Virus record (IMG/VR): IMGVR_UViG_3300037067_003427
Coordinates: 5,505-69,504 of that record
From: a virus
Taxonomy: Duplodnaviria; Caudoviricetes
Reading direction: 5' to 3' (one strand)
DNA length: 64,000 bases
Shown here: positions 7,145-57,876 of the stretch, piece by piece
How the letters are laid out: every line of letters begins with the position of its first letter
Numbering within the stretch: the first letter of the stretch is position 1
Program-made: the position numbers and the translations under genes
Notes under the pieces: generated by a model
Seen by the model: the letters and a program-made list of their open reading frames with translations, nothing else
Told to the model about the DNA's origin: nothing
Database searches by the model: none

Positions 7145-7160
7145 TTCCAGATGTCTGGAA
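7145..7160. repeat. Dispersed 16-bp quasi-palindrome, copy 1
   Basis: TTCCAGATGTCTGGAA, just upstream of the RBS of 6876-7124. Confidence 0.95.
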
Positions 7161-7431
7161 TTTTTGTTGCAATGGTTTTTTTATAATTATTATCGTTGTC
7201 ATATGTTTATGACACTTTTCTTTCCCATTTTTTGTACAAATTGGACACTTCAATCTGTCACCCCATTCTTTTCGCATTTCCTGTTGTGTTCTCCTATAAA
7301 TTCCTTTGACAATGGTTTATATCCTCTTAAACGATATATTTCTTTTACAAGTTGACCGTTCCGTCTTTCAACAAGTTCACACCTATTCTTCCAATATTGA
7401 GTATCTTTATCCATATCCGTCTCCAAGAATT

Positions 7432-7447
7432 TTCCAGATGTCTGGAA
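7432..7447. repeat. Dispersed 16-bp quasi-palindrome, copy 2
   Basis: TTCCAGATGTCTGGAA, just downstream of the 7465-7647 ORF. Confidence 0.95.
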
Positions 7448-7464
7448 ATTTTCAGTCTGCCATA

Positions 7465-7647: not shown

Positions 7648-7648
7648 A

Positions 7649-9239: not shown

Positions 9240-9299
9240 GACATTTCACCTCCTTTTCGCTAGTGTTCTGTCATGGCATCACCTCACTGTTTCTTTTCA

Positions 9300-10271: not shown

Positions 10272-10556
10272 CTATTCTTTTGGAGGTTTACACTGAAAGC
10301 ATTTACATGAAGGATGATGCGCCAGAGTATTCTTAACTAATGGCGTTACTATCTTTTTGGCATCATCTTTAGTCTTTATCACTTTCGGTGTGTCAATACT
10401 CGTCTTAACTGGTTTCGCCGCTTCCTCTAACTCTTTAATCCTTTCCATGAGGACTTTACAGTTAGAACACTCCGAAGTACCAACCTTCTTTTTCGCCCTC
10501 CTTTCTTTTTGGTACGCCCTCATCTGTTCTTTGGTTCTTACCATCACAACCTCCAT
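10272..10556 (-). CDS. Hypothetical protein with Cys motifs
   Basis: CSNC and HHPSCKCFQC motifs. Confidence 0.5.
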   Translation of the reverse strand: MEVVMVRTKEQMRAYQKERRAKKKVGTSECSNCKVLMERIKELEEAAKPVKTSIDTPKVIKTKDDAKKIVTPLVKNTLAHHPSCKCFQCKPPKE

Positions 10557-10559
10557 GTA

Positions 10560-11862
10560 ACATTTTGTAACTCACATTCGCTTTGAATCCACTGTTACAC
10601 CTTATTGTAACATTGTCAAGCCGTTTTTATGATGGTCGTTGTAACTTTTTGTAACACCATTCCTATCTTTTTCTAAAATTTCCAGAACATTCAATTCCAT
10701 ATACCCTTTATTCTATTCAGGTATACCCCCCCAATACCCCCTACCACCCTTTTATAACATAGCATTATTAAAAGGGTTAGTAACATACGTAAAGTAGCTC
10801 AAACAGGTTAGTAACACGTATAAAGTAGGTTAGAGACTCATCCCGCCCCATCGATCACGAATTCCGGGTTGTACGGGCACAAGCATAAAAGAATTCTTTT
10901 ACTTGGCTTACTAATGATTACGTATATATATGATTGTCTATTGAATTGATAGTGATTAGATATAAAGGTATGCTACGCATGGATTAGGAGTATATGTCGT
11001 GTTACTTATAGCATGTATATACATTATAGATATCCCATCGCCCCTGCGTTAAGAAACGATCTATCCCTTACTGTGTCTACGATTGCTCATATGCGTCAAC
11101 TGTTGACGCAGTTATATATTGTGCCCCTTTGTATATACGGTTTACATATCATTGTAAACCCGCCATCTATTCCATAATCGAATAATAGATTGCAGCATAT
11201 GAATAGCCTGTCTTGTGTAAGTCAATACAGTGTTGAGATAGAGAAGAGAAGGAAATAGAAAGGCTTGGGGATACTGTTCAGCAACTACTGAAATATGAGT
11301 AATCTGATTATTGAATAGATATGATTATGCTTTTATACTCTCATTGGAAATACTATATACCCTCACGGCGAAAGCTGAAACAGGATCGGAGTCCTATGTA
11401 AAATACCTGTCAATACGGCGTTTTGATTCCTGTGTTTTAACATGCAGGATCAACCTGATACAAATTCGACGTTTTTGCATCTTATGGCTAAGATCTCCAG
11501 CGCTTTATAAATCCCAAAACCTAAAAGAAAACATAAATATAAGGAATAGACCTTTGGGCGAAGTGTGGCATAAATATTTCCAGATGTCTGGAAAAGTGCG
11601 CAAAGTATTTCACACCTGTTTTATAACCCTTGATATTGCTACTCTTTATGGTGTGTAAATGTTTACGCAGTGTGAACGTAAATAAACACTAATATGATGC
11701 AAAACATCCCCTATATCAGCCATGTCAAATGATAGATAAAATGATAAACACGTATAACTATATGATATTACATTGATAAAAATAAATATTGAAAATGTTA
11801 ATAATTGGCAGACCATATGCATGTATAAAAGGCAAATAACATAATAATAGGAGGGAAAAATC
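10560..11862. promoter_or_regulatory. Non-coding divergent control region, candidate genome-terminus or packaging region
   Basis: No convincing ORF; strand switch from late to early genes; imperfect 27-bp direct repeats (10771-10797, 10802-10828); perfect inverted repeat TGCGTCAAC-T-GTTGACGCA (11092-11110). Confidence 0.45.
11578..11593. repeat. Dispersed 16-bp quasi-palindrome, copy 3
   Basis: TTCCAGATGTCTGGAA, about 270 bp upstream of the first early ORF. Confidence 0.95.
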
Positions 11863-14800
11863 ATGAAAGTAGAAAAAAGAATTGAAAGTGGATCGGTAGT
11901 TGTGGAGATTACTCTTAACGAGGAAGAACAAAAAACCATGATCGGAGTAGGTGTGCAAGAAGGTGGAAGCTCTTGGACTGTGTCAAAGGATAATCCCATC
12001 AAAAACTTTGCCTGTCTGCTGCGGGCACACTATGGGAGTTATAAGGATATCCCATTGACGCTACTGATGCAAGATAACTACTGTGTGCCAAAACCGTGCT
12101 TTGACCTCACCGCACAGCAAATCCTTGAGATTGCATTAAAAAACTATGATGCAATTTTGCAAGCAAAAGCAGATGCACACGCGCTCTGTGGGGTTGCGGA
12201 GTGCGTCTCACAAAAATCAGCCGTGGAATTTTTAGCCACGGAAAACCGGCTCTTATATCGGACAAGCAAAGGGCAAATCAAACCGATTGAATAAGTTAAT
12301 AGTTGGCTCAATATATGTATATATAAAAGGTAAAACATAAACTGGGAGGTTTAAAAAATGGATCATACAAAAGGACCGTGGAAATGTCAGGTTATACCAA
12401 CAACAACACGCAGTGGGGATGAAGTTTTTGTGAATATCTATAGTCAAGGCGGTTATGCTTGTGGGAGAGCTTACGGCGAAAGTATTAAAGAGTGCTTTTC
12501 CATTGCTCGCCTTATCGCCGTTGCTCCTGAATATGATGAACTTATTAATGAAATTGCCAATGATCTTGGGTATGCAGAATGGGCAACGCCAAAACACGCA
12601 GAAGACATTTTATGTGAATTGATTAAAAAATATCATACAAGGTTACGTGCGGCAATCGCTAAATCAAAAGGGAATTTATAACAAATCGGTCAGTGGTTCA
12701 GTTTATTGGGAATAACAGGAGGCAACGAGCAATGAAAGTTGAGAATATGACAGGTAATAGCGGACGAGAGATTCCAAATCAATTTATAATTCGTGATGAT
12801 AAAGGAAATGTTTTCTTTCAGTCCTATCAAAGCATCATCGTCAAGATTGACAAAAACGGAAACACGTTTCTTGATCGGAATAAATGGGATTATTCAAAAA
12901 CCACCGGCAAATATAGAAACGAGTTTCTAAGAGAAACCAAAAAGGACACAGAAAAGAAGATCAAAACCGGCGAGTATAAACTTGCAAATTTGAATTAATC
13001 CTCCTGTCAACAACCCCCTTCACCTTGAGGAAGTGGAGGGAGAGATTGACCGGATGATTAAAATTGAAAGGAGATTAACACATGAAGCCATTAAAAAAGA
13101 TAAAAGATAATCGCGTAAAATGCAAAACTAACGAAACAGATTGCACTGGAGGAATGGAATGTCTTTCAGATACCAACCCCCCATTAAAAACCTGCAAAAA
13201 GTGTTTGTGTTATACTTGCACAAACGGAAAATGCCGAAACTATAAAAGGCTTTAGGATGCAAAAGGAGACACAACCATGACCATGCAAGAACTTGAAACA
13301 CTGAACATTGGCGATCTTGTTAATGTCATACTCCCTTCTTGGGGTACAACCATCAAGGGCTGGCGCGTTGTTTCACAAGTGCGGAGATATTACATCACCA
13401 TTGACAGCAATGGAATTAGAGATTTAATTGTGCATCCAAGAGAAGTTTTAGCAATAAAAAGGAGGGTCAAATAATGAGATTCACGCTTGAAATTAAGATG
13501 GATAATGCAGCCTTTGAAGATGATCCGAGCTATGAAGTAGCAAGGATACTAAGGGAAACGGCAAAACGGATTGAAGGACACCCGCATTTTTCACCTGGGC
13601 ATGAACAACCTTTGCATGATGTAAACGGTAACAATGTTGGTTGTTTTGACGTTTGGAAATGAAAGGAGGACACCTTGAACCGATTAAATACTTTCGATGA
13701 TGATTTGTTGGAGAGGATGAAAAGAGCGGCTGATTACATCGGCAGAAAATCCAATGAAAAACTTCTTCGGGCACACACAAGAACGGAGTTTGGATTTTTA
13801 GCCATTTGTATTCTTGAACTTGTCATGATTGCTTATTTACTGGGGAGGTGAAAAGTGAAACCAGAAATCAGGAAAGCGATTGAGGAGTTGATTCCATTAT
13901 ATGATGAAGTTGATTCTTCAGATTTGGAAGGGATCGCAACGGCCAAGGCTTATGAAATAATCAAAAAGGCTAAACCCACGCAGAACGCCTTGATTAGTAT
14001 GCTGGAAATTATGGACTTAGCCGATATTATCCTTGAAGGCGCTTACGATGAAATCAATGCAAGGGAAAGAACCGAAGCAACACAGGAGGGGTCCTATGAT
14101 TGATATTGTAATAATTATTGTAATTCTAATATTTATATTTGTGAAGAGAGGGGATTAAATCATGGTATATGTAACGTATTACATAACCGATGACAACGAA
14201 ACAGTCATTGTTTATGGTGGAACTGACAAAGCCAAAGCGGTGGCGGCAATGAAAAAGGGCCCCATAGTAAGAACATCATATCTCAATAAGTGGGAAGATG
14301 AAGAATTGATTTCGGAATACTACCAAGAATGGTGGCGTAATCACCGTGGGGGATTTGTAAGAAGTGTTGGAGAAGTTATTGAATTAGAACATTGGAACTG
14401 TATCGAGTGCGGCAATAGAATCATGGAAGATGATAAGGTGGCGCTTCTCATCCTGGATCAAACTGGACTGTGTAGAGAATGTGCTGATAAACAACAAACG
14501 GAAGATCGGAAGGAAATAGAGGGGATAAATGGACCTTATAAGCGCCCTTAAACGGGCAAATGAAGAGAAAACGGCTTTCATTAACGTACTTTTGGGTGAT
14601 GGCCACATAGCCGACAAGCATCTCAGACAACGGGTAAGCGATCTTGAGCTTCAGAATGAAAATCTGATGCAGGAAGTAATCGATCTTACAGAATCACTGG
14701 AAAAAGAAAGGGGAAAATAATGGAAGTAGTCACCAAAGAAAACAATGATCTTGCACGGCTCAAGGTATGCAAAGAATGCAGAAAGACAACATATACATGT

Positions 14801-16256: not shown

Positions 16257-16820
16257 TCATTTTTTCTTCTCCTTTGCTTTTTTCATATCAGTTACAAGCG
16301 TCATTGACGTTGTTAAACCACACTTTTTACATTTGTTCATCATCCATGTTTCCGTTTCGTGTTCACAGGTATCCTTCGGCTTCTTGCTTAAATTATCAGA
16401 AAGGTTCCGGCAGGAGTTCGTTTTGGCCATGTGGAGTAGTTCTTCCTTTTCTTCGTCTGTTTTTCCTCGGGCGTAAGGAAGGATTTCAATTAAGCGATAC
16501 GGGAAGATTCCAGATAATTCCAGATGTCTGGAAATTACAGGGTAGAGTTCTTTAACAACTCCCATGATGTTGTTTCCGGTGGATTTCTTAAGCCCGATCT
16601 CATTTTCCATCCAGTGATTGAAATTCTTGGCTTCAGATCCATCGCTTTGCCACACCCGGAACGCTTTGGCGGCAAGAAGATATGCCCCCAGATGAAATAC
16701 ATCATCGCACATATCCATTTTTGACTGTTCGATTCCCTGTTTGACTGAATGGACAATAGTGGAATTATCCTTTTCATCAATCTTGGTTAATGCGTTTATA
16801 ATCTCCCTATTTTGCATCAT
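16257..16820 (-). CDS. Hypothetical protein (C-terminal CEH...CKKC zinc motif)
   Basis: 187 aa ORF within the operon. Confidence 0.55.
   Translation of the reverse strand: MMQNREIINALTKIDEKDNSTIVHSVKQGIEQSKMDMCDDVFHLGAYLLAAKAFRVWQSDGSEAKNFNHWMENEIGLKKSTGNNIMGVVKELYPVISRHLELSGIFPYRLIEILPYARGKTDEEKEELLHMAKTNSCRNLSDNLSKKPKDTCEHETETWMMNKCKKCGLTTSMTLVTDMKKAKEKKK
16518..16533. repeat. Dispersed 16-bp quasi-palindrome, copy 4
   Basis: TTCCAGATGTCTGGAA inside the CDS (encodes part of ISRHLE). Confidence 0.95.
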
Positions 16821-19298: not shown

Positions 19299-19502
19299 TT
19301 AAGTGTTCTTTTCGATCCTTATGTATGGGATCTTTGCTACAGGAAGTCCGATAATGGGAGACATTTTCACAGCGGAATCAAAAAAAGGAACTCGTTTGGT
19401 ATAAATCCATGAGTTTATGGTTGTAACCTTAAAACCGGCCTTTTTTAATTCCTTGCGATATTTCTTTACCAAAAGTCGAAATTTTGTCTTATTGGTTTTC
19501 AA
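19299..19502 (-). CDS. Small Cro/XRE-like HTH protein
   Basis: 67 aa, basic; ELKKAGFKVTTINSWIYTKRVP resembles an HTH recognition helix. Confidence 0.45.
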   Translation of the reverse strand: MKTNKTKFRLLVKKYRKELKKAGFKVTTINSWIYTKRVPFFDSAVKMSPIIGLPVAKIPYIRIEKNT

Positions 19503-20862
19503 TTATCTCGTATTCCCTTATCCAATCAATCACAGCTTCAGAAAATCCATCAACATGGGTCCATGCGCCATAGCCGACACCGTTCTGAGCGGAGGCAACA
19601 TTAATCAAATAGTTATGCTTTCCAAGCAGACGCGCCTTTGAGGGCGAGTCGTCATAGCCAATTCCGCAATCCTGTTCATCGGTAATGACAATCACGCGGT
19701 CAACGTCACCCTCGGCCTTGTAGACAAAATCCATGACCTGCTTCAAGAAAATGCCTCCACCGCCGAGAGGACGACAAAGCTGATAAATGGCATCCGACAG
19801 AGCGAAGCCGTGGCGGGAAGGAACCAACTGAGTCTTGTGGACTCGCGTACTATCATTCCCCGCTGTCGCGTAAATAATCGGAACTTCGCACAACTCCCTA
19901 ACAAGGATAGCCAATGAACAGGCGACGTTTGCCCGATCAATTTCGGAGTATTTTGATACCGGGTTCCCATACATGCTCCCCGAAACATCAACAACCATTG
20001 CGGTCTTTCCGGGAAGTTTCGTAAATTGCGATAGGCAATTCAGCATGGGAGTCTCAATCGCCTCTTCTGCCCACAGGTTATGTTTGGCGGCTACGATGAA
20101 CCTAAAAGGCAAAACTCGGTCTGTTTTCATTCTCGCTAATGAATCTTGGATAAGAGACTCCGGCACCTTGGCCTCTTTCATGTTACGCAGGTTTCGCAAG
20201 AAAGCCAAGGCCCCCAATTTATTCTCAGAAATCAATCGTTCCCATGTTTCTTTTTTATCTTTTCCAGAAGACAATGCAACTTCCCATGTATCCGGAGGAG
20301 ATAGGGTTCCACAAACAAGATCATTCCAATCAGCAGATTGCAAAACGTCTTTTGGCTTTGCGTGACAAAGGAAAAGAACATCACGAAGTTTTATTGTTTC
20401 GTCACGATTATACTTTGCCAGTTGATAGGCGTTGAATTTTGTAAACGCTGAAGCAAGACCTTTTTTTACCTGAGCAGAAAGTGGTTGCTTGCCTTCTTTC
20501 CAGTATATAGCAAGAAATTCGGTAAGCTCATCTGGGCGCTGAATGACTTTTGCCAACACAGAGGCGGTATTTTTATATCCAATTCTTGCCAATTCACGTA
20601 CCAGTAAAAGTGGAACATGGCGAAGTTTGAACTTTTCTCGTGCTTCAATGGCCAATTCCGCTACTTTTTGTGAATCAACATCATTTACAAGAGAAGCAAT
20701 GCGAGAGGCAACCGTTTCTCCGTCTTCATAAAACTCTCTTTCCCAAAGCATACAAGAGCACACAGACCTTCGTAACTTTTGATAGGCGTTGATGTGTACC
20801 GCTTTTGCTCCTTCGTGGGTGTAAATAGGTTCTTTTTTAACTGTTTTATTCAACTTCGCCAT
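19489..20862 (-). CDS. rsr: Ro60/TROVE-domain RNA-binding protein with C-terminal VWA domain (Rsr ortholog)
   Basis: THEGAKA, LRRSVCSCMLWEREFYEDG, LRHVPLLL, IQRPDELTEFLA, AYQLAKYNR, PDTWEVALS, VVDVSGSM (MIDAS), IVITDEQ; true start MAKLNK follows RBS AAAGGAGG. Confidence 0.92.
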   Translation of the reverse strand: MAKLNKTVKKEPIYTHEGAKAVHINAYQKLRRSVCSCMLWEREFYEDGETVASRIASLVNDVDSQKVAELAIEAREKFKLRHVPLLLVRELARIGYKNTASVLAKVIQRPDELTEFLAIYWKEGKQPLSAQVKKGLASAFTKFNAYQLAKYNRDETIKLRDVLFLCHAKPKDVLQSADWNDLVCGTLSPPDTWEVALSSGKDKKETWERLISENKLGALAFLRNLRNMKEAKVPESLIQDSLARMKTDRVLPFRFIVAAKHNLWAEEAIETPMLNCLSQFTKLPGKTAMVVDVSGSMYGNPVSKYSEIDRANVACSLAILVRELCEVPIIYATAGNDSTRVHKTQLVPSRHGFALSDAIYQLCRPLGGGGIFLKQVMDFVYKAEGDVDRVIVITDEQDCGIGYDDSPSKARLLGKHNYLINVASAQNGVGYGAWTHVDGFSEAVIDWIREYEIIENQ

Positions 20863-21046: not shown

Positions 21047-21174
21047 TGGGGAAGTGGGTAGGAGTCGAACCTACAGCCTCGTCATTATCCTTGAAGTAAC
21101 TCTTATCTTCGCTACCTTTCGGAGAACAGGCGATAAGAGAAATTTTCGCGCTCTACCGCTGAGCTACCACTTCC
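21047..21174 (-). ncRNA. tRNA-shaped Y-like RNA (128 nt): tRNA shell with a 65-nt Ro-binding-type module in place of the anticodon arm
   Basis: Acceptor GGAAGTGG/CCACTTCC + encoded CCA; T8A9; D arm GCTC-AGCGGTA-GAGC; variable loop AGGCT; T arm GTAGG-TTCGACT-CCTAC; the insert carries the same AGCGAAG/TTACTTC motifs as modules 2 and 3. Confidence 0.85.
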
Positions 21175-21346: not shown

Positions 21347-21961
21347 ATGGAAAGATGGAAAGACATACCGGGGTTTGATAAATACGAAATTTCCACGCTT
21401 GGAAGGGTTAGACATAAATTCCATAAACATATTCTTAAATATTCCTATCCATATAACGGGTATCCGCAAGTCAAACTTTCTTTAAATGGTGAACATGGAG
21501 ATAAAGTGGGCGGAATTACGAAATGTGTGCATAGTTTGGTATTTATCACATTTGTGCGCTCTCTTTTAAAAGGAGAAGAAATAAACCACAAAGATAATAA
21601 TCGTGCCAATCCAGCATTGAATAATCTTGAAGTTTTTGCAAACAAAAAAGAGCACGGGAAAGTACATAGAACATTACAATATAGAAATTGCCTTGAGTGT
21701 GGCAAAGAAATTAAACCTAGTAGCCTTTATTGTTCTAGGGAGTGTAGGTTAAAAAACATAAACGTAGAAAGACAGTGTAAATACTGTGGAGGTTCTTTCT
21801 ATATTAGCAAAAAGTTCATTGCGTGGAAAATGAATGATATCAGATATGCTAACGGAGCCGGAATATATTGCTCACGTAAGTGTTTTTATTCTGACCGTAA
21901 AGGGAATCCAATCCGAAGACCGTTTTATCCCTTTGCTATAAAGGAATCGCGAGGGAAATAA
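21347..21961 (+). CDS. NUMOD4-HNH homing endonuclease with C-terminal Cys motifs
   Basis: ERWKDIPGFDKYEISTLGRV (NUMOD4); VHSLV...INHKDNNRANPALNNLE (HNH); YCSREC and YCSRKC repeats. Confidence 0.85.
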   Translation: MERWKDIPGFDKYEISTLGRVRHKFHKHILKYSYPYNGYPQVKLSLNGEHGDKVGGITKCVHSLVFITFVRSLLKGEEINHKDNNRANPALNNLEVFANKKEHGKVHRTLQYRNCLECGKEIKPSSLYCSRECRLKNINVERQCKYCGGSFYISKKFIAWKMNDIRYANGAGIYCSRKCFYSDRKGNPIRRPFYPFAIKESRGK

Positions 21962-24269: not shown

Positions 24270-24285
24270 TTCCAGACATCTGGAA
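24270..24285. repeat. Dispersed 16-bp quasi-palindrome, copy 5
   Basis: TTCCAGACATCTGGAA directly before the RBS of the exonuclease gene. Confidence 0.95.
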
Positions 24286-40205: not shown

Positions 40206-43200
40206 TTAACCCTTTTCCATCAGTTTCTTATAGCGAGAAGGGTGCTTCTGGGCAAGGTTGACCAACTTTCTTGCTCTGATTCTACTGTATTTTTTCTTCT
40301 CTTCTTCAGTAGCCTTATCCCATATCTCTAAAAGGTCTTCTCCAGACAGGGCTTTCATTTGGACTTGAGTAGCAGTTGTTCTTGACCGTTCAAGGATAGC
40401 TTTCATATCTTCACGCCCAAGACTTCCACTTTTGATATCATCCTGAACATTCTTCATTATATCCGTTACTGGTTTATGGGCATCACGGTTTTCTTTAACC
40501 TGATCTGCATACATTCTTACCAGTCCCATACGTTCACGTTCAACTTTGGGGGCAGAGATGACGATCCTTTCATGGAACTTATCAGCCACAGCTTTCTCAA
40601 ACTCTGTTTTAAACGGATAGTTGGAAATACCACCGGATTGAGCCATAGCGTTTATAATGGAACGAAGGGGTGTCTGCCCACCTGTCTTAAAGAAACCCTG
40701 TAAGGGGATAGGTGTCCATGACCGCCATATTTCTCTTGCCACCTGTTCTGCATCAGCTTTTCTTCCATATCTGTCTCTTCCTTGAGCCAGTTGAATTATC
40801 GGTCTTCCGTAAAGAGGATTGATACGATTATAAATGAAGTTTCTGGGGTCGTTTATCAAGTGCATTAAGTCTCCCATAACAGAACGGGGAGTGTATTCAT
40901 GTTTTCCGATAATCAGAGAGAATGGACGGTCCAGATGCATTTTATGGTCATCCCCGAACATAATATTAGCAAGTTGTGCAATGACAAACATTCCGATACC
41001 ACCTCTTAAAAGAGCCGTTGCCTGTTCTCTTCCGGCGCCTAAAGGATGTGCGATTGCCGATGCAACAAAGCTCATTCTTGCAAGTAGGAAGTCTGGGGCA
41101 AAGAGGGAGATTTGCAAAGCATCAATCAGGGTCGGATTCCATGCCTCTCCTTTCCAGTTCTTCCCGCCGAAGGCTTCATTGGAATGTCTTGCTTCCTGCT
41201 CAAAGACTTGAGCCAGTGTCATTTCACCATTTTTTATCTTTTCAAGGTTATGGAAGTACGTCCGTGTTGCAGCTTTTTCTGCCATGGCCATCTTGAGCTT
41301 CGGGAAGAAACTCAGCCACATAAAGTTGTTAAACTGAGAAAGCCTTTCACCTACACCCTTGGCGAACTTTCCGGGGATGATTCCAAATAACCCTATTCCA
41401 CTTAACCCTTCAGATATAATTTCTGCATGATGGTGGTCGTAAGTAATCAGTCCATGTTTAACAAGAGATTGCCTTAGTTCCCCTATGGTCATCAGTTTAC
41501 CGTCTGGACCTGTAATCTTACTTTTCTCTGTAGAATGGAAATCTACATCTGGAAGTCTAAAAGGGTTGATTGCGTGATACATCCCATGAAGTCCCAAGTG
41601 GACAATATGAAATGGAGATCCAACAACCATTGTTTCTTTGATAAACGAACTTGCTTTGAGAAGTTTCTTCCCTATCTGAACCCCTCCTATAAACGGCCAG
41701 CTTTCAGGAGCAGTCCAGTTTCTTAATTTGGATGAACCTAACCATGCGTTCATCTGATGGTAAGCGTCTTTATGCACCCATGCCGAAGCTTCCATGTAAA
41801 TCGGATTGCCCTTTTCATCCTCTCCCAGATACTTGTACTTTCTAAAATCAGGGTGATCGAATTGGATATAATTCCCTCTATCCGGAACTGCGGTAGGCTT
41901 TATCATGTATGCAGAATCAAAAGCACCGTTTCCTTCGACCACTTTACACGTACCAGCAAGGACCAGAGTAGGATTCTTATCGTTCTGAACATGGCCACGA
42001 AGGGCAAGAATTGTTTCTCTGTTGATAATGGCGTTTTTGATGGACCTCTGCCATTCAACCAACTGCCCTCCAATGGTAGGATCGATAGGTTGATAACCTG
42101 ACATAATAGCTTCGTGGTAATTGTTGAATATCTTCTGCATGGCTTCACGAGGCTTTGTGGTGAGTATTCCTGCATTGACTTCTGAAAGGAGTTTATTTGT
42201 CACTATATTTGGTTTCCGGAATGAACCACGGACATAATTCTCAACAAAACTGTCCACGAGTTCCAAATGGTATGCTTCATTAAACAAGGCGTTCCATAAA
42301 GACCTGAAGTTTGCCGCTTCTTCCTTTTCGGCAGGAGTAAGCTTTAAAGCTCTTTCGTAACTCTTCTTGGCTGCGGTGAGTGTTTCGATATATTTCTTCC
42401 CATATCCGGAATAGGTTTTGCCATACATGGTTGAAACCTTTGGAAGCTGAAGATTGACCATATCCAACCATTTCTGTAGCTGTTCTTCGCTTCCGGCGTT
42501 CATGTAATAAGTAATGGCAGTTTGTTGTTCTCTGGTCAGCCTTTTGTTGATTGCCTTTAACTGGTCCATCAGGTCTTTTTCAACAATCGCCTTTGAACCA
42601 CCGTTTCCATCAATAATGTCTTTGAGACTCTGTTTTGCAGGAACAATCTTCTGTTTGTAGATATCGACTGTCTTTTTAACGTCCGTCTTGGCATCGGTCA
42701 ATACTCTTTGAATCTCTGGAAAGTTCTTAAACTTGTCCACGACATCATCAAACTGAATAAACAACTCTCCTTGGTCTGGAGGCGGCTTATTCTGTTTCAG
42801 TCCAAATGGAACTGCTGTACCTTTTGGAGTAATTTCAAATGTTTCTTCTGGGGATAAGCCGGGGAGATCGGCTGTTTTAAATTGTGACAACGCTTTTTGC
42901 GCCCACACGTTCTGTTTATATTTTTCCAATACTTCTATAGGAACTTTTTCTCCTTTTTCTAAAGCGTCCTTAACAAGTTGTGGATGAGCACTTAACCGTA
43001 TAGCCTTTTCATCTCCAGTTTTATCACCAACATATTCAGATGGAGTCATTTGCCATGGCTGTTTGACTTTTGGTGTAGTGGCAATTTCTTGAGGTAGAGT
43101 TGAGATCATTTCCTTATACTTTGCTTCGGATATAAATTTACCATCAACATAAATTCTGGCGGGAAATTGATTAAAAAGGGTTCCTTTTGAAGAAACATTA

Positions 43201-46200
43201 ATAATCATATCCTGTTCAATACGGATATTCTTCCCCCCACGATTTCCGGTAATATTAAATCTATATCCATCAAGGTGTTTCACCTCTCCATTATCCAATT
43301 CTCCCAATTTATTTTGAATCTTGTCTTTCCATGAAGATATTGTCTCATCGGCATAAGAATCTGCCGCCTTTTTGAGTCTAACGGCATCGATCTTTTGGGG
43401 TGGAAGTTCACTCATACGATAGGTTCCAGTTTGCCGTTCTAACACGTTTGAGATGGTTTCACGGTAGAATTTAGCAGAAGAACTATTATAGACTCCCCTT
43501 AGAGTTGGTCCGAATTGATCAACCATTCGTTTGAATTGTGATTCGATCATAGAAGAATATCTGGTTGCAATGGCTGGCTTATATTTATCAAGAACATCCA
43601 TTAATACTTTATTTTTTATACCAGTTTCGGTTTTTGGTGCTATACCTTCTTCAACAGGAATAATAGAATCCATAATCTCATGCAGTTCATCTAGTTTGGA
43701 TTTCATTCCATAATTACCACCAATGAAGTCCACAATGATATTCTTGAATTTCTGCCATACTGTTTGAGATTCCTTTTTCTCTCCTTCAGTTTTAATCGAA
43801 TCCAACCATCGGGCGAATCCTTTTCTTGTAAACGCATAAGATACGAGTTCTTCAGGTGTCATGTTTGCAATATCAATTATCTTCTTTACAGAATCAGGAG
43901 CATATTCTGCACGATTCTTAACCGAATCAAGAAGTTTATTAAGACGGTTGTTTAATAGAATTGCCTGTGCAGAAGTCATCTTTCCGATAAAGTTTCTTAT
44001 AATCGCGTGAATAGACTCATGGCCAAATGCTTCCATATACGCATCGGAAACATTTGAAAGATTTTGGTCTATATAAGGAGTGTTAAAAGTAATCCTGTTG
44101 TCATCCTTGTCATATACACCCACCGCTCTTTGTCTTGCTTCATGAGAGATGTTAGAAGGATCAAATGATATTTTAACTCCGAGTTTATCTAGTATGGGAA
44201 CCAGCCAACCGTAAGCAAATTTCTGACCTGTAGCCTTTTCGTAAAGCTCTACGGCTTTAGAAGGAGACATATCTTCTGCTTTTTGAAGATTCCACATGGA
44301 TTTAAGAAGTTCTTTACCTTCAGGTGATTGATCTTTGGAAGGTGAGGTCTCTCCTTGCATTTCAAGTTGGTTTTTTGCATTATCAAGTCTTTCCAATATC
44401 TGTGTCAAAATTTCTTCGGCATCATACCGATCTTCTGCATCCAACAACTTTTTAGCATCACGGCGTTTTTCCAGTTCTGGTGTTTTGAGTTCTTCGTAAA
44501 GAGTATCTATTGACTCTGCATCTTCCTTATTAGATTGATCCGTTGCTTTATCAACCTTTTCCTGAAGTTCAGAAAACTCCTTTTCCTGTTTGTATTTAAG
44601 TATATCTACAATTTTATTAGATTCGCCAGCAATAGGTGTTTCAAGTTGCTTTTTCCCTACTGCATCAAAGAAACTATCTACTTCTTTGGCATTGGCTTCA
44701 AGGACTTCGGGAGTAAGCCTTTCTTTTTCGAGTTCATTTACTGCCTCCTCCATTTCTTCTGCATGTTTTGCCAAAAGTGCCTCTGATTCTTTTTCAATCT
44801 GATCTACCTGCTTCTCGCTGATCTCCCCTTCAGTTCCACCTTTTTGCAGTCTTCCCATCTCACGAGGGTCTTTTAACGCTTCCATAAGATCAGAATCACT
44901 TTTAAAACCATGTTCCTGTGCAATCTCTCCGATGTTATTGTTTCCGCTTCCTCTGATAAGACCGGGGTATTGTTTTGTTAATTGTTTTATTGTGTTTGAA
45001 TCAGTAATCCCCCGTAATCCCGTTTTGGTTTCTTTGTTTCCAAGACCTATCCCCCCGCTTTTTCTAATCGCTTGAATGATAGGATTCATAGGATTGCTTG
45101 ATTTGGATGCTCGTATTCTTTTTGGGGCTTCCTTTACGGGTTCTGCTTTCTTAGCTTTAATCTTTTCACGAACAGCGGTAACACCTTTTCCTTCTTTCTT
45201 GCCAAATTCAACACGTTTTCTTGCGAGTGCTTCTGGAAGTGTTTCGTTTTTGCCAAGACTGAATGTAGTTCCTGTTTTGGGATCGGTGAATAATGGAATC
45301 GGTGGTTTGTTAACCCGTTCCTGCATATCATTAAATATAACACCAGCATCTTTAGCTTGTTTTTTGTAATCAGGTTCGGCGGCTTCTTTATGTTGAGTTT
45401 CCTTATTGATTTCACTTAATCTATCGTTGACGGTTTCAACAACAGTTGAGTATCTTTCGTTTAGTGGTATTTCTCTTTCAAGTGCAGATTTGCTATTGAA
45501 CCGAGATTGTTTCATCCCGAGATTTTTTTCATACAATTCCTTTGCCGCCTTTGATGACATTACGTTCCCATCGGTAACGTCTATTCTAAAGTCAGTAGTT
45601 CCCCTAACCGAATCAACTAATCCCGGTTTATATTTAACCACTTCCGAGTTAGGAAACATTTCTTTAAGTTCTTCAATCGTTGGTATCTTCCCCGAAGAAT
45701 CAAAAGATAAAGATATTATACTCCCATTTAAATTGGATTGAACGATTATTGGTTTATTAGGAGAAACACCCTCTATATTTGTTCCAGTCTGTTCTACTTT
45801 TTCTTCTTTTTCGGAAACAGCTTCTTCAGGCGGTAAAATAGCCTCATTTTTGACTTCTTCTGTCTTCAATGGAGCTTCAGTCGTTAAAACTTCTTTAGGG
45901 GCAATTTGAGGCTCAGATGCCTTTCCAGCAACCTCTTTCTGTGCATACTTCTTTACTATCTCATCTGGTTTTCCAGCAAGAACAGTATTGGCATCTTTAA
46001 GAAGCGTTTCGGCATCAGCAGTGGGATTCTTTTCGAGTACGAAATCAACTGCCGCCGCTACCTGAGATTTGTTAAGATTTGTCCAAAGGGAATTTTTCAG
46101 TCCTATGATGACATCATCACGGTTAGGATTTGCTTCTGTTTGTTTTGGAGTAAACCGTTGTGCCATATCTCTACTTAATTCCGGTTGGACAATAGGAGTA

Positions 46201-47330
46201 TCGACAACCTTTCTTTCTTCAAGGCTGTCCATTTGTGAATCAATATCCATGGACAACGAATCAAAAGGAGCCGTTACATCAATAGGAAGATTGTTCTGAA
46301 TCTTGTTAAGAGCATATTCAGCCCACTTTTCCTTTATTTCAGGATTGTCTGTAGCGATAATATCCGATACACCACCGGCTATTTCAGCACGTTTTTTCTG
46401 CTTTGCCAATGATTCAGGGTCTTGCGGATTGAAATTCTCTATTGGACTGGCAAGGATATCAGCCTGTTTTGCAGCTACATACTGATTGACCACCTGAGCG
46501 CCACCACCGACAAGAACGGTCATAAGCGCGGTCGGACCTATGGCGGAAACTGCTTCTGCCCATGGATCGGCTTCAGGACGAATACCCTGACGCTTTTCAA
46601 TCATGGCCTCAATATAGTTCTGTCCCATTTCTGTAGATATTTCGAGAGGCATGGTACGAAGGGTAAGTTCTTTGAGGTAATTAATAAGACCGCCTTTAAG
46701 AACGCCTTTTGCACCCTTATCCAGAATAGACTTTCCGATAGTTCCCAGAGGACCGAATAGCCTTGCTGCCGCCCAGTTAGCAACTTCTTCTCCAGTAAAT
46801 TCTGTGAGTCCTGTCAGGTACGGTGCCGCACCTTCAGGAACTCCTCTCTGCTGTGCAAGTTCTCTTGTTGTCTGTGCTTGCGAAAGACCGAATATGGCAG
46901 GGATGGCATACTGTGAAATCTTCCCTGCACCGTAAACAAGTCCTCCAACGGCCTTTGCTGCCGGATGAGGAACGAATTGTAACGCTTTTCCTACTCCCAT
47001 TAATCCCATAGGAATACCAACAGACATGGGTATCATTTTACCGGCCTGTTCGGGAATACTTTCAGGAGCGTTCCCCTGTCCTTCTTTTCCCCATTCAGAT
47101 ATCTTTTGGGCAGTATCTTCCGGCTTAGTCCCGCCCACTCCCAGAAATTGAGATGCTTTGGCAAGTTGTTCTGGAACGCCATAGACCGTTCCCTTGTATA
47201 TACCTTTGGCAAGGCTAGTTACGGGATTGGATGAAACGGTTTCCTCTTGAGAAGGAGCAAAATCATTCCACGGCCCAGATTCAGGTTTCTCTTGAAAATC
47301 TTCCCAAGGATTGCTCATATTTTCTCCCAA
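40206..47330 (-). CDS. Large internal virion (ejection) protein with polyvalent-protein features
   Basis: 2374 aa at the end of the virion operon; N-terminal PWEDF/PWNDF repeats; HExxH (GHESIH) metallopeptidase-like motif; PWQMTPSEY motif. Confidence 0.7.
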   Translation of the reverse strand: MGENMSNPWEDFQEKPESGPWNDFAPSQEETVSSNPVTSLAKGIYKGTVYGVPEQLAKASQFLGVGGTKPEDTAQKISEWGKEGQGNAPESIPEQAGKMIPMSVGIPMGLMGVGKALQFVPHPAAKAVGGLVYGAGKISQYAIPAIFGLSQAQTTRELAQQRGVPEGAAPYLTGLTEFTGEEVANWAAARLFGPLGTIGKSILDKGAKGVLKGGLINYLKELTLRTMPLEISTEMGQNYIEAMIEKRQGIRPEADPWAEAVSAIGPTALMTVLVGGGAQVVNQYVAAKQADILASPIENFNPQDPESLAKQKKRAEIAGGVSDIIATDNPEIKEKWAEYALNKIQNNLPIDVTAPFDSLSMDIDSQMDSLEERKVVDTPIVQPELSRDMAQRFTPKQTEANPNRDDVIIGLKNSLWTNLNKSQVAAAVDFVLEKNPTADAETLLKDANTVLAGKPDEIVKKYAQKEVAGKASEPQIAPKEVLTTEAPLKTEEVKNEAILPPEEAVSEKEEKVEQTGTNIEGVSPNKPIIVQSNLNGSIISLSFDSSGKIPTIEELKEMFPNSEVVKYKPGLVDSVRGTTDFRIDVTDGNVMSSKAAKELYEKNLGMKQSRFNSKSALEREIPLNERYSTVVETVNDRLSEINKETQHKEAAEPDYKKQAKDAGVIFNDMQERVNKPPIPLFTDPKTGTTFSLGKNETLPEALARKRVEFGKKEGKGVTAVREKIKAKKAEPVKEAPKRIRASKSSNPMNPIIQAIRKSGGIGLGNKETKTGLRGITDSNTIKQLTKQYPGLIRGSGNNNIGEIAQEHGFKSDSDLMEALKDPREMGRLQKGGTEGEISEKQVDQIEKESEALLAKHAEEMEEAVNELEKERLTPEVLEANAKEVDSFFDAVGKKQLETPIAGESNKIVDILKYKQEKEFSELQEKVDKATDQSNKEDAESIDTLYEELKTPELEKRRDAKKLLDAEDRYDAEEILTQILERLDNAKNQLEMQGETSPSKDQSPEGKELLKSMWNLQKAEDMSPSKAVELYEKATGQKFAYGWLVPILDKLGVKISFDPSNISHEARQRAVGVYDKDDNRITFNTPYIDQNLSNVSDAYMEAFGHESIHAIIRNFIGKMTSAQAILLNNRLNKLLDSVKNRAEYAPDSVKKIIDIANMTPEELVSYAFTRKGFARWLDSIKTEGEKKESQTVWQKFKNIIVDFIGGNYGMKSKLDELHEIMDSIIPVEEGIAPKTETGIKNKVLMDVLDKYKPAIATRYSSMIESQFKRMVDQFGPTLRGVYNSSSAKFYRETISNVLERQTGTYRMSELPPQKIDAVRLKKAADSYADETISSWKDKIQNKLGELDNGEVKHLDGYRFNITGNRGGKNIRIEQDMIINVSSKGTLFNQFPARIYVDGKFISEAKYKEMISTLPQEIATTPKVKQPWQMTPSEYVGDKTGDEKAIRLSAHPQLVKDALEKGEKVPIEVLEKYKQNVWAQKALSQFKTADLPGLSPEETFEITPKGTAVPFGLKQNKPPPDQGELFIQFDDVVDKFKNFPEIQRVLTDAKTDVKKTVDIYKQKIVPAKQSLKDIIDGNGGSKAIVEKDLMDQLKAINKRLTREQQTAITYYMNAGSEEQLQKWLDMVNLQLPKVSTMYGKTYSGYGKKYIETLTAAKKSYERALKLTPAEKEEAANFRSLWNALFNEAYHLELVDSFVENYVRGSFRKPNIVTNKLLSEVNAGILTTKPREAMQKIFNNYHEAIMSGYQPIDPTIGGQLVEWQRSIKNAIINRETILALRGHVQNDKNPTLVLAGTCKVVEGNGAFDSAYMIKPTAVPDRGNYIQFDHPDFRKYKYLGEDEKGNPIYMEASAWVHKDAYHQMNAWLGSSKLRNWTAPESWPFIGGVQIGKKLLKASSFIKETMVVGSPFHIVHLGLHGMYHAINPFRLPDVDFHSTEKSKITGPDGKLMTIGELRQSLVKHGLITYDHHHAEIISEGLSGIGLFGIIPGKFAKGVGERLSQFNNFMWLSFFPKLKMAMAEKAATRTYFHNLEKIKNGEMTLAQVFEQEARHSNEAFGGKNWKGEAWNPTLIDALQISLFAPDFLLARMSFVASAIAHPLGAGREQATALLRGGIGMFVIAQLANIMFGDDHKMHLDRPFSLIIGKHEYTPRSVMGDLMHLINDPRNFIYNRINPLYGRPIIQLAQGRDRYGRKADAEQVAREIWRSWTPIPLQGFFKTGGQTPLRSIINAMAQSGGISNYPFKTEFEKAVADKFHERIVISAPKVERERMGLVRMYADQVKENRDAHKPVTDIMKNVQDDIKSGSLGREDMKAILERSRTTATQVQMKALSGEDLLEIWDKATEEEKKKYSRIRARKLVNLAQKHPSRYKKLMEKG

Positions 47331-53464: not shown

Positions 53465-53478
53465 CGTTATTACCTCCT

Positions 53479-53934: not shown

Positions 53935-53946
53935 GGCGTCCTCCTT

Positions 53947-54855
53947 TTAATACAATGAATTAATGTAATGACGAACATTATTTTTATCCCTGACGAAAGC
54001 CGTTCCTCTACCTCTTGCTGTGAATGTGTATCTTGCTTCTGTCAGATTAACTACCTTTCCGCTATTGTCACCGAGACATATCCCGTTTTCACTTGTCCAT
54101 ATTGCCACATCACCATCTATACTGTCATCGACATACTTTCCCGCAACCAGTATATCCGTGTAAGGAATAGCCGGAGATGGGAATACGCCATCCCTTGCAA
54201 ACTCATCATTCCCTTTTCCTTTGATAAACCACACCTGATCGTCAGAAACATAAATCCCATTGTCCACGATGGAACGTAGCATAGTAATCCGTTTATTGAA
54301 GATTCGGTATCCGGTACGAACATCATAGTAGTCGCATAGTGGATCTGAAATATAGAGGATGTTATCTTTGGCAACCAGAAGGCATCCTTTATGAACTTCG
54401 ATAAACTGTCCTGCCGGAAGTGGCTCTTTAAACTCTCTCGCCGGTGTCATCAAAGCATTGTCAACATCCTTTGAGATATATCCAATCTGGTGTTCGTTGG
54501 TGTAGTAAATCCTGTCATTGAATGAAGCATAGGACATTCTTGCACCTGCAAAAAGATCACTTCTAATGATGACCTGATTATAAACGGTATCCAGTTTATA
54601 GAAAATTACTCCATCCACATAGAGCATCGTCACATTGTCAGACCACAAGGAATGAATATCAGTTCCCGTTAGGACTGTTGTGAAACCGGAACGTGAAGAA
54701 ATGGCATAGGTATTGTCAATATCCACATTGTTCGCCTGTTGAAGAGGATAAACCTGTTCCGTTCTGCTTATGGCAATAGGAAAAAGCCTTGTCGCAGAAT
54801 CGACTGTATTTATTCCAGAGAACTTATCTACAGACTGTTGAATTGCAATATCCAT
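53947..54855 (-). CDS. Tail tubular/nozzle-type protein
   Basis: FSGINTV...NNVDID...SRSG N-terminus; beta-rich; located in the tail module. Confidence 0.55.
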   Translation of the reverse strand: MDIAIQQSVDKFSGINTVDSATRLFPIAISRTEQVYPLQQANNVDIDNTYAISSRSGFTTVLTGTDIHSLWSDNVTMLYVDGVIFYKLDTVYNQVIIRSDLFAGARMSYASFNDRIYYTNEHQIGYISKDVDNALMTPAREFKEPLPAGQFIEVHKGCLLVAKDNILYISDPLCDYYDVRTGYRIFNKRITMLRSIVDNGIYVSDDQVWFIKGKGNDEFARDGVFPSPAIPYTDILVAGKYVDDSIDGDVAIWTSENGICLGDNSGKVVNLTEARYTFTARGRGTAFVRDKNNVRHYINSLY

Positions 54856-54918
54856 TACTTCTTCCTTTCAATGCCATACCCTTTTTTCTTACCGGGTTTC
54901 CAGCCATGTTCCACAGCA

Positions 54919-57876
54919 TTAAGAAGTCGCTCTTGTGACTTCGCCTTCTCTAAAGTTGTTCCTTTGCTTTTTATCCCTTTTGGCGTGCTCACCTGATAAT
55001 GACTTCCCTTTTTCTTTATCGTTACTGGCATGTAACACCTCCATAACCTTTTCTATTTCTTCTATCACACGCTCTTCGGTGATGTCTTTTGTGCAAATAT
55101 AATCCTTGTTTCTTGGACACCAATCGAACCCTCTATCTATAGGAAGAGAAGGGTCATGAAAGCATCCGGGGTTACATACATCAATAGAAATCCTGTGTTC
55201 ATTTGGGAAGTCATTCTCTTCTATGGAAACACCTGTAATCATAATACACGGCTTGTTGAGAGCATAGGCAATCCATGAAGGACCAGCATTAAGTCCTATA
55301 TAAAAATCACACCCTGCAACATCATTTATCGTCTGTTCAATCGGTTGCCCGTTGTGGCTTATGATACCTTCTAGGTTACCCTTTTCAGCACTTATTGAAA
55401 TGCACTCATATCCTTGAGCGTTCAAGTAATCGATAATCTTCTGCCATGCACCTTCACGGTTCCATAACTTATTCTTCATAGTTGAAAACTCCGAGAAGCA
55501 AACATAGGGTTTTGCCGGATTACCGTTGCCTCTTTTTGGGATTTGATACTTCAACTTCGCCCGAATAGGTTCGTATTCCAATCCAAGAATATCAGAAGCA
55601 ACCTTCTGAAGATTCGTTTCCCGCCAGTTCTTCACATTCTTGTCGAGTTGGTCATCAAAGCATCCTACTTCATAGGTAGCGTAAATGTCTTTAATCTCAC
55701 TTCCGGGGGTAATGAATTCGATATCCGGATAATCGAATATGTTTCTCCACCATGTTGAACAGTAAACCTTACACTCATGTTTCTTCCGGAACTCGTCAAC
55801 ATAAGGTATCCATGCAATCGTATCACCAAGGGCTTTTGACCCCATGGAGATAATGACGTTCTTCCCTTTTAAATCGATTTTATGCTCAAATTTTACATTT
55901 CCACCGAGGGATGCTTTCACAGTCCAGTCCTGATAATACTTTGTCTTGGATCTGCTCCACATTCCTACTTTCTGTTTGAGGTTATAGACGTTTTCCGCTT
56001 CTTTGGTACTCCATGCAATATCGTATTCGTTATTGGACATGCTCGAAGAACCGATAATCTGAAGGAATGCACCATCTACAAAATGACACAGGAACCGATC
56101 TTCGCCCCATAGAGTTCGATCTGCCTGATCGAAACGGTTCACAATATCCATCTTGATGAACTCGACATTCTTTTCAATGTCGTAAATCTTGGAAACGTGT
56201 TCATAAAGCCATCGTTCTGCAAGGAACCTATGTTCGGGATAACGGCTTGCGTATTCTTCCCATGAGGAAAGATAGGGGTATATCTTGTCCATGACTTCTG
56301 TTTTAGCCGCCATTAAATGACCGCCGAACGTCTTTGGATCACCTTCCCACTGTAAACAGATCATGTCCTTATCGGAGTTATGAACTTTGTTTAACCAGTC
56401 GTTTAAATCCACTTCCACATCGAAAGACATCTGGTAAATCCAGTCGAATTTCCCTCTGGCAAAATTGATTCCATTACGAAGGTTGTTAAGACCAGCCACG
56501 GCATGATACTGAACTCTCGCCCTCTTTTGTTCCATTGAACCATCTGGGAGTTGCCGCCAATAAACAGGATGGTCATCTCCGGAAAGGATGTCTTTCTTTT
56601 CGTAAACAAAGTAATCAGCCATCGTCATAACTTCAGTAGGAACAGGATAGTGAGAAGTGACAATAACTTCATATCCAGCCCTGTGAATCTGTTCGATGGT
56701 TTCCTTTAGGGTTTCCATCTTGGCAGGAGTATCAGGCCAGCAATCTACAGCAAATACAGTGCTTCTCTTTTTCATGTCTGTAATGTCATAACCGTGACTT
56801 CGGGCATAAGATTTGATTTCCTTTTCAGTATTTACTACTTCAAACGGTTTTTCCAGATGTCTGGAAAACTCATTAAGAATCTCCATGGCTGTTTCTGCTG
56901 CCTTTGCCCACGAGAACTTCGTCCGTATCATTTCAGATAGCTTTAAAGCCTTCTCTTTATGTTCTGAATAGTTTTCATAAACGTCCTTCATCTTCTCAAC
57001 GAGATTATTGTAATCCGGCTCTCCCCACTGACCGGGAACATCCCAGTTTCCATAAATCCCTTCCGGTTTCTTTAATTCGCTGATCCGGACAACAATAGCA
57101 TCTCCTGCATATTCGGTAGAGCCGCCAAAATCGGAGCATATGGACGGAATTCCACACGCCATTGACTCGATGAGAGGCAGGTTCCATCCTTCTGAACGAG
57201 CGCAGGTAACCACACAGTGCGCCGCCTGAAGCCGCCTGATATAATCCGGCCTTGCTTCATAATGTATAGGGATGATTCGTGAGTCTTCGAGGCCATATGC
57301 TTTTAACCTTTCTTCTGTTGAGTTGTAATTGTCCGAAGGAAAAAGGGTATCCGCTGAAAGATAAAGACGAACATTTGGATTATCTGGGAACGCTTTTAAG
57401 AACGATTCACATATCTCTTTGGTTGATTTTCTTGCTTGCCACTGACCTACATGAACAAAATTAAAGTTTGGCTGAGAGTACACTATGTTTTCTCCTCCCG
57501 GCTCCTTCTTTTTTGGTTTATAGACTTCTGGGTCAACACCTTCATGAACCACTCGAATAAATTCCTCTGGTACTCCTTGAGCAATGGCACATGACTTTTC
57601 CCATTCCGAAACAAGCCAAAGCTGATCGTAATACTTAAGGTTGACAAGAAACTGTGCCGGGTACTGAGTCGATTCCCAGACCGTATAAAGGATACTTGGT
57701 GAAGGTGGAAACTTGATTATCTGTGACGCTGTAACAACATCAAGCAAAGAAATGTGAACATCTCCCTTTCCTTCAAACTTTACCGTTGCCAGTTTCGCAA
57801 GCTGTTCCGTAAATCTGGAAGCATGGACTTGATAACCTGTTCGTTCTCCAATAGAACCGTGAAATACTATGTTCAT
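54919..57876 (-). CDS. Multi-domain glycosyltransferase: GT4-like GT-B domain + middle domain + TibC/Aah-like (autotransporter heptosyltransferase-type) domain
   Basis: N-terminal HVGQWQARK...RSEGWNLPLIESMACGIP; C-terminal SKALGDTIAWIPYV, KLWN...WQKIIDYL, FYIGLNAGPSWIAYAL and Cys set CNPGC...WCP...ICTK. Confidence 0.82.
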   Translation of the reverse strand: MNIVFHGSIGERTGYQVHASRFTEQLAKLATVKFEGKGDVHISLLDVVTASQIIKFPPSPSILYTVWESTQYPAQFLVNLKYYDQLWLVSEWEKSCAIAQGVPEEFIRVVHEGVDPEVYKPKKKEPGGENIVYSQPNFNFVHVGQWQARKSTKEICESFLKAFPDNPNVRLYLSADTLFPSDNYNSTEERLKAYGLEDSRIIPIHYEARPDYIRRLQAAHCVVTCARSEGWNLPLIESMACGIPSICSDFGGSTEYAGDAIVVRISELKKPEGIYGNWDVPGQWGEPDYNNLVEKMKDVYENYSEHKEKALKLSEMIRTKFSWAKAAETAMEILNEFSRHLEKPFEVVNTEKEIKSYARSHGYDITDMKKRSTVFAVDCWPDTPAKMETLKETIEQIHRAGYEVIVTSHYPVPTEVMTMADYFVYEKKDILSGDDHPVYWRQLPDGSMEQKRARVQYHAVAGLNNLRNGINFARGKFDWIYQMSFDVEVDLNDWLNKVHNSDKDMICLQWEGDPKTFGGHLMAAKTEVMDKIYPYLSSWEEYASRYPEHRFLAERWLYEHVSKIYDIEKNVEFIKMDIVNRFDQADRTLWGEDRFLCHFVDGAFLQIIGSSSMSNNEYDIAWSTKEAENVYNLKQKVGMWSRSKTKYYQDWTVKASLGGNVKFEHKIDLKGKNVIISMGSKALGDTIAWIPYVDEFRKKHECKVYCSTWWRNIFDYPDIEFITPGSEIKDIYATYEVGCFDDQLDKNVKNWRETNLQKVASDILGLEYEPIRAKLKYQIPKRGNGNPAKPYVCFSEFSTMKNKLWNREGAWQKIIDYLNAQGYECISISAEKGNLEGIISHNGQPIEQTINDVAGCDFYIGLNAGPSWIAYALNKPCIMITGVSIEENDFPNEHRISIDVCNPGCFHDPSLPIDRGFDWCPRNKDYICTKDITEERVIEEIEKVMEVLHASNDKEKGKSLSGEHAKRDKKQRNNFREGEVTRATS
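56851..56866. repeat. Dispersed 16-bp quasi-palindrome, copy 9
   Basis: TTCCAGATGTCTGGAA inside the CDS (FSRHLE). Confidence 0.95.

Follow-up and report, generated by a model that had tools for sequence, protein, structure and literature searches.

Identical 16-bp palindromes dispersed over an uncultured podovirus-like phage genome, with a small phage protein as their candidate binder

Palindrome copies and their genomic context

The window analysed here, a 64,000-nucleotide stretch comprising bases 5505–69504 of the 69,504-bp IMG/VR virus record IMGVR_UViG_3300037067_003427, comes from a podovirus-like, uncultured phage (labelled G000) over whose genome the 16-bp quasi-palindrome TTCCAGATGTCTGGAA is dispersed. 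The phage encodes a portal protein, a large terminase and a primase-helicase, together with dTDP-sugar, radical-SAM and glycosyltransferase genes in large number, a TROVE/Ro60 protein, a 2374-aa orphan protein and an M15 endolysin, the last of which indicates a bacterial host. Its closest relatives in the collections searched are distant, with a highest portal identity of 74%. Positions are those of the window unless they are given as genome positions.

Exact matches to TTCCAGATGTCTGGAA occur on the + strand at 7145, 7432, 11578, 16518, 30122 and 56851 and on the − strand at 24270, 31549 and 35415, confirming all nine copies that the original prediction had listed by eye. The whole record holds ten, the tenth lying just outside the window at genome position 4613, while dinucleotide shuffles are expected to hold none. 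No other 12- to 16-mer is repeated as often in this genome. The word has a 7-2-7 layout, TTCCAGA-CA-TCTGGAA, and all ten copies are identical, the asymmetric centre included, as predicted. When the full contig was scanned with mismatches allowed, no copy with one or two mismatches was found, and at three mismatches only two sites appeared, which is about what chance provides (1.04 expected at ≤3 mismatches). The half-site TTCCAGA is not enriched in the genome, with 35 lone copies observed against 29.6 expected under a Markov model, indicating that the signal lies in the pairing of the arms and not in the arms themselves. The palindromic element is therefore real and far beyond chance. The copies have A/T-rich flanks, as had been noted, though these flanks extend the symmetry to an 18-bp palindrome in only six of the ten and not as a rule.

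Five copies lie inside intact genes, three stand just before a ribosome-binding site, and two are in other non-coding DNA. The three at ribosome-binding sites, where two had been counted, each occupy the gap that separates a stop codon from the ribosome-binding site after it. The copy at 7145–7160, sense strand (−) and reading TTCCAGACATCTGGAA, is 5 nt upstream of the Shine-Dalgarno (SD) sequence GAGGGAGGG and the ATG (7130/7124) of a small gene, which we take, judging by eye only, to be similar to N4 gp49/Sf6 gp66. The copy at 7432–7447, also in the CA form on sense strand (−), precedes a 54-aa open reading frame (ORF) with its ATG at 7414; it is 7 nt upstream of the SD, GGAGA, and adjoins a weak −10-like GAAAAT. 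The third, at 24270–24285 (sense strand +, CA form), stands before an orphan 306-aa gene (ATG at 24299), 1 nt upstream of its SD, AGGAGGG. As for the remaining non-coding copies, the one at genome position 4613 directly follows a TATAAT and is itself followed, after about 130 nt, by a structural-region gene, and the one at 11578–11593, which has no assigned sense strand, is inside a 1.3-kb non-coding divergent region (10545–11862). This region also contains five TGTAAC repeats (10556–10655), two GGTTAGTAACA repeats (10775 and 10806) and a hairpin (11092–11110), and it may be an origin or control region.

The in-gene copies are read in two frames, in agreement with the original prediction. Translation as I/FSRHLE is found at 16518–16533 (sense strand −, ISRHLE) in the gene of the 186-aa orphan protein discussed below, at 35415–35430 (sense strand +, FSRHLE) in a DegT-type aminotransferase gene (34609–35754), and at 56851–56866 (sense strand −, FSRHLE) in a variable inter-domain segment of a 985-aa glycosyltransferase gene (54919–57876). 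The other frame is used at 31549–31564 (sense strand +, FQTSG) in a B12-binding radical SAM gene (31036–32403) and at 30122–30137 (sense strand +, FQMSG) in a radical SAM gene (29501–30592). Glycan-pathway genes hold four of the five in-gene copies, an observation made post hoc. The CA form is on the sense strand for 7 of the 9 copies in the window, as originally counted, and for 8 of the 9 assignable copies genome-wide (two-sided binomial p ~0.04); the copy at 30122 is the sole one with TG on the sense strand.

In related phages, the segments that correspond to the in-gene copies are poorly conserved but of the same length, and they align to the copies without gaps. Examples are ISRHLE against IRNHAE and ILKHHE, and FSRHLE against LLKDVPN; the copy at 35415 likewise falls in a variable segment whose length equals that of the orthologues. 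This gap-free fit shows that the in-gene copies were made by substitution, not insertion. A mobile palindromic element, such as a mini-element resembling repetitive extragenic palindromes (REP) or miniature inverted-repeat transposable elements (MITE), was rejected, as there were no insertions relative to orthologues and no transposase or RAYT was found. An assembly, adapter or sequencing artefact was also rejected, since a 16-bp artefact would break five reading frames, and the five copies in question keep long ORFs open and align to orthologues.

The word was then sought in other sequence collections. The exact scan of IMG/VR for the 16-mer gave 36 single hits, and exact scans of JGI metagenomes and of 185,579 species genomes gave single hits per record among the matches listed, where one unrelated high-G+C soil contig held two copies 114 bp apart (L176:1060–1189). 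No array of this word was seen in other virus, metagenome or genome records among those matches. A host-wide repeat, which the original prediction had named as one outcome that would undo its reading, or an uptake sequence is improbable on these scattered single hits, the metagenome and genome results again being those among the matches listed. The looser TTCCA-N6-TGGAA showed no enrichment in the surroundings of the portal genes from 80 relatives (828 kb in all), and recurrent palindromes were not found there either. Separately, about seven Streptosporangiaceae genomes of high G+C content (loci L276, L279, L297, L349, L363, L381 and L384) share the identical 16-mer TTCCAGACATCTGGAA as a conserved upstream element, in which it stands beside a GTCAACGAA box and, in one case, upstream of an FHA-domain gene. 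This element is probably the operator of an unrelated bacterial regulator.

A candidate binding protein and its co-occurrence with the motif

The original prediction had proposed a 67-aa helix-turn-helix (HTH) protein (19299–19502) as one candidate binder. This proposal found no support, as the protein has no Pfam, PHROG or NCBIfam match and no homologue in the motif-sharing relatives. A better candidate is the 186-aa protein encoded at 16257–16817 (−), whose gene itself contains a site. An extra lone arm, TTCCAGA, lies within the same gene at 16508–16514, 3 nt from the full palindrome at 16518 (TTCCAGA-TAA-TTCCAGATGTCTGGAA).

The 186-aa protein has 69 distant homologues (P0122–P0189), and this family has four nearly invariant Cys/His residues close to the C-terminus, consistent with a C-terminal Cys/His zinc ribbon. 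No homologue was found in cultured phages, five further partial relatives were also without the protein, and related-locus searches with the 306-aa protein and with the homologue P0122 returned no loci. Weak matches to DUF3102, a family that is uncharacterised in the literature, were obtained for 4 of 65 relatives, with the G004 copy scoring 23.2 bits against a cut-off of 24.4, and they suggest that the protein is distantly related to DUF3102.

An AlphaFold model of the protein (predicted local distance difference test score, pLDDT, 93) contains a central helical domain that resembles the DNA-binding domains of the ParB/Noc/KorB type (residues ~35–147). Foldseek returned weak rows for this model, mostly ParB-family entries. 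With VIA-align, the DNA-binding domains of ParB, Spo0J and Noc superposed with Z-scores of 7.0–7.6 and root-mean-square deviations of 2.5–3.0 Å over 91–97 residues, followed by the Raf1 alpha-domain (Z 6.9), KorB (5.2–5.4), SopB (5.0) and VirB (4.5), with the next unrelated fold at 3.7. In all, 31 chains reached a Z of at least 5, and no sequence-level match accompanies the match to the ParB-type fold. From the model, we take it as probable, and not certain, that the central domain has a ParB-type DNA-binding fold.

The likeness does not extend to the rest of ParB. The structural matches are confined to the ParB DNA-binding domain (residues ~130–230), only about 35 residues precede the modelled domain, and neither the 186-aa protein nor 65 aligned relatives gave a Pfam match to the CTP-binding ParB N-domain. 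No ParA/CbiA-type match was found among about 75 phage proteins, the set scanned against Pfam or PHROGs, with some small ORFs left out.

Next we asked how the protein and the motif are distributed over related phages. Five related genomes of 66–76 kb were taken whole (G001–G005), and G011 was a later addition, reached only through the protein. A profile hidden Markov model found the 186-aa protein in G000, G001, G003 and G004, and not in G002 or G005. The motif TCCA-N6-TGGA is enriched in G000 (12 against 2.5 expected) and G004 (10 against 1.9), and the shorter TCCA-N4-TGGA in G001 (10 against 1.3) and, marginally, G003 (6 against 2.5); in G002 and G005 there is no enrichment of either word. 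The protein sequences show the same split as the N6 and N4 spacings, pairing G000 with G004 (33% identity) and G001 with G003 (35%). An unbiased scan of all possible arms also ranked TCCA words first in G001 (4-mer arms) and, in G004, first and second (5-mer arms) and second (4-mer arms). The 186-aa family and palindromes of the TCCA…TGGA type thus occur together across phages.

The individual words differ between these phages in how far they vary. G001 carries TCCATCGCTGGA seven times, letter-perfect like the ten G000 copies, whereas the copies in G004 and G011 vary. G004 has TTCCA-N6-TGGAA five times, against 0.2 expected, with varying centres; in one of these, TTCCAGC-CA-GCTGGAA, both arms are changed symmetrically, and another is 14 nt before the ribosome-binding site of a 576-aa gene. 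In G011, the word ATCCAGACATCAGGAC agrees with the G000 core in 13 of 14 letters, and GTCCAGATTTCAGGAC stands just before the ribosome-binding site of a gene about 420 bp downstream of its 186-aa homologue. The pattern TCC.GA..TC.GGA occurs twice in that genome, against 0.04 expected, and its arms, TCCAGA…TCAGGA, are not self-complementary (A opposite A). In G000, ten 16-bp palindromes that may be cognate to the protein lie on the same replicon as its gene, as do related words in the other protein-bearing genomes.

Other palindromic words were seen in these genomes. G002 (L135), a phage without the TCCA motif, has nine GTGTSACAC palindromes within 340 bp (11590–11930), a cluster that looks like an iteron-type origin or operator array, as well as 11 dispersed CGGTACCG sites. 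A second palindromic word in G004 (L131–L134) is TTAA-N4-TTAA, found 21 times against 4.1 expected and dispersed.

On balance, we lean towards reading the ten 16-bp words as double-stranded DNA docking sites for a dimer of a phage HTH protein, for which the 186-aa protein is the best candidate. A parS-like site for a dimeric DNA-binding protein had been part of the original prediction, and it gains support from the co-occurrence, in five phages, of related palindromes with a protein modelled with a ParB-type fold. Each arm of the palindrome would be read on duplex DNA by one HTH of the 186-aa dimer. Without the ParB CTPase domain, the protein would be expected to stay on its site and not slide. 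Sites at gene junctions and within genes could then act as operators or polar roadblocks, setting the level or timing of expression along long operons, and the copy in the binder's own gene could provide feedback. A site inside the gene of the binder has a parallel in spo0J, which contains a parS. The main alternative outcome of the same binding would be architectural, with the sites serving as anchors or in genome organisation.

Several observations weigh against this reading. The fold Z-scores are all below 8, a range where helical domains can match by arrangement alone, and the Raf1 alpha-domain scores as high as the ParB-type matches (Z 6.9). The protein has no sequence-level match to any solved structure, and its DUF3102 match is sub-threshold. 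Co-occurrence is based on seven genomes, of which G005 may be incomplete; G002 has direct terminal repeats and yet is rated 78% complete by CheckV. G003 has the protein with weak enrichment. Ten identical copies amount to 32 bits, far beyond what a regulator needs, and G000 has no weaker sites. Finally, an RNA-level element would account just as well for the CA form being on the sense strand in 8 of 9 copies and for the robustly predicted hairpin.

Alternative explanations and other features of the genome

Such an RNA element, in which a UUCCAG-ACAU-CUGGAA hairpin in front of ribosome-binding sites and within selected mRNAs serves as a processing, stability or translation-control signal for an RNA-binding protein or RNase of phage or host, is an unlikely explanation, though the one that survives best among the alternatives. 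The original prediction had considered a hairpin improbable because of its 2-nt loop, but that objection falls: the innermost A-U pair opens, leaving an ACAU loop on a stem of 6 bp (about −7 kcal/mol), a fold that is predicted with a pair probability above 0.85 in 8 of 10 sense contexts. In mRNA, the same strand (CA) would be present for 8 of 9 assignable copies, and an SD follows within a few nt on the 3′ side of three G000 copies and of one copy each in G004 and G011. This last feature carries less weight in a compact genome, which forces every intergenic site beside a ribosome-binding site, and one in-gene copy has the opposite orientation. The sequence of the stem is conserved across phages without covariation, the G011 arms carry A·A or U·U mismatches that break it, no Rfam family matches, and the co-occurring protein resembles, in its model, a DNA binder. 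Taken together, arms conserved between phages without covariation, a variable centre and non-complementary G011 arms favour double-stranded DNA over a hairpin.

We consider it improbable that the sites are read by a protein of the host, for example a nucleoid protein or a transcription factor, so that phages of related hosts share the TTCCA…TGGAA arms. A hint of similar hosts is that G000 and G004, which share the N6 motif, alone also share the M15 endolysin (46% identity), and the upstream conservation of the same 16-mer in about seven Streptosporangiaceae genomes means that some cellular proteins probably read it. However, the motif is found where the phage protein is, and this holds also for G011, a genome to which that protein alone had led; no bacterial genome has more than one copy among the matches listed, and in-gene positions are unusual for the sites of a host regulon.

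Somewhat less probable again is that the words are enzyme substrates, either nick or cleavage sites or short crossover sites for the exchange of gene blocks, with polarity given by the CA/TG centre. Perfect identity over 16 bp without near-matches is more typical of an enzyme site than of an operator, and the 7-2-7 arrangement around an asymmetric central dinucleotide is reminiscent of recombinase core sites. The phage does encode a NUMOD4/HNH endonuclease (21347–21961), and between the copies at 7145 and 7432 lies a 287-bp segment that only this phage has. Against this, the sites used by HNH homing enzymes are long and asymmetric, the ~75 scanned proteins gave no recombinase, integrase or resolvase match, and ten recombining sites in both orientations would scramble the genome; in addition, the centres vary in G004 and G011.

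That the intergenic copies are weak intrinsic terminators of antisense transcription, with the in-gene copies incidental, is very improbable: although four copies are called terminator-like on the antisense strand (a hairpin and then a T run), the stem, which has only 3 G-C pairs, is short and weak, the G+C-rich hairpin with a U tract on the transcribed strand is missing as the T run is antisense only, terminator-like sites in the region are as numerous as in shuffles (15 against 14.6), and the five exact in-gene copies and the conservation of the arms across phages are left unexplained.

A promoter function was also considered. A/T-rich −10-like hexamers adjoin four intergenic copies, with poor −35 elements, and promoter-like sites are not above the level of shuffles. 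An N4-like hairpin promoter for a virion RNA polymerase was rejected, as the 2374-aa protein has no RNA polymerase match and the relatives by portal protein are HMO-2011/CRP-type podoviruses. This 2374-aa protein, an orphan of the virion region (40206–47330), has no Pfam or PHROG match at all, and its best partial similarity is to Methanosarcina virus MetMV (15% coverage, 37% identity).

Some features of the genome stand apart from the palindromes. A tRNA (Rfam, 44.8 bits) at 21050–21173 (−) is near the TROVE/Ro60-like gene (19489–20862), and the homing-endonuclease-like gene with NUMOD4 and HNH_3 domains (21347–21961) is at the start of a rightward gene block. The last 105 bases of the record (genome 69400–69504, window 63896–64000) match genome bases 53–157 at 99% identity, within collagen-like fibre genes. 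The ‘linear’ record is thus probably either circularly closed or ends inside a repeated gene.

Comparison with known systems and implications

Our literature search for dispersed perfect palindromes returned nothing specific. The closest published precedent that we identified is the 17-bp dyad repeat TGTTCGG-N3-CCGAACA of Cluster O mycobacteriophages (Corndog), present in 34 copies and of unexplained function (PMC4351075). It is the same kind of feature as the G000 element and not of the same family. Both combine invariant inverted arms of 7 bp and a short spacer with many copies and few near-matches; Cluster O phages have very few one-mismatch sites, and neither their host nor other phages have the word (PMC4351075). 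In both, copies are found between and inside genes and are absent from other genomes, for G000 among the matches listed, and in both a dimeric DNA-binding protein has been proposed as the binder, there by the authors of PMC4351075 and here by us. The phages themselves are unrelated and the words differ in sequence, with a spacer of 3 bp in Cluster O and 2 bp in G000, and more than 30 copies compared with 10. Unlike the Cluster O repeat, the G000 word also has an invariant centre and an orientation bias, and a candidate binder family can be proposed for it.

The ParB-family systems parS/ParB, NBS/Noc, OB/KorB and sopC/SopB are alike in having 16-bp palindromes, several per replicon and some within genes. 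KorB on RK2 uses 16-bp OB sites for gene silencing (PMC11790492), and the phage-plasmid N15 has four separate SopB IR sites (PMC7205306). The central domain of the 186-aa model superposes on the DNA-binding domains of this family, at Z-scores below 8. The 186-aa protein lacks the N-terminal CTPase domain, so that no sliding clamp is expected, it has a predicted zinc ribbon in place of the C-terminal dimerisation domain of ParB, and it shows no sequence-level similarity. No ParA partner was found among the ~75 scanned proteins, and on this point and on the CTPase domain the protein falls outside the ParB family proper. The phage looks lytic.

Copies of a repressor site are dispersed through the phage genome in the case of the stoperators of Cluster A mycobacteriophages, the P1 C1 operators and the phiC31 inverted repeats. 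Stoperators, the asymmetric 13-bp sites of the immunity repressor of temperate phages, are oriented relative to transcription and block elongation. The single orientation relative to transcription is found in G000 as well (8 of 9 assignable copies, p ~0.04). However, these phages are temperate, with the immunity repressor as binder, and stoperators and P1 C1 operators are asymmetric and vary between copies. The G000 site is palindromic, and the family scans revealed neither a repressor nor an integrase module.

The element is most likely a protein docking site on DNA, and it belongs to a known but unexplained type of phage repeat, for which there is now a concrete candidate binder. We also put forward, much more tentatively, that a two-part system not described before may be at work, in which a zinc-ribbon binder with only a ParB-type domain, together with its own dispersed 14–16-bp palindromes of the TCCAGA type, co-evolving in their N6/N4 spacing, organises or times lytic genomes; this could perhaps also explain unexplained dispersed phage palindromes as a class, the Cluster O repeats among them.

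Several phage groups have been found to carry dispersed, letter-perfect palindromes, and those of Cluster O have lacked a binder and a function since 2015. In the present case the motif appears tied to one small protein family by predicted fold, co-occurrence, co-variation and an independent phage, making this pair a candidate for a test at the bench. If the proposed binding is true, it would add a clamp-less relative to the world of ParB and KorB, and would show by what means some ten addresses are marked on the chromosome of a lytic phage.

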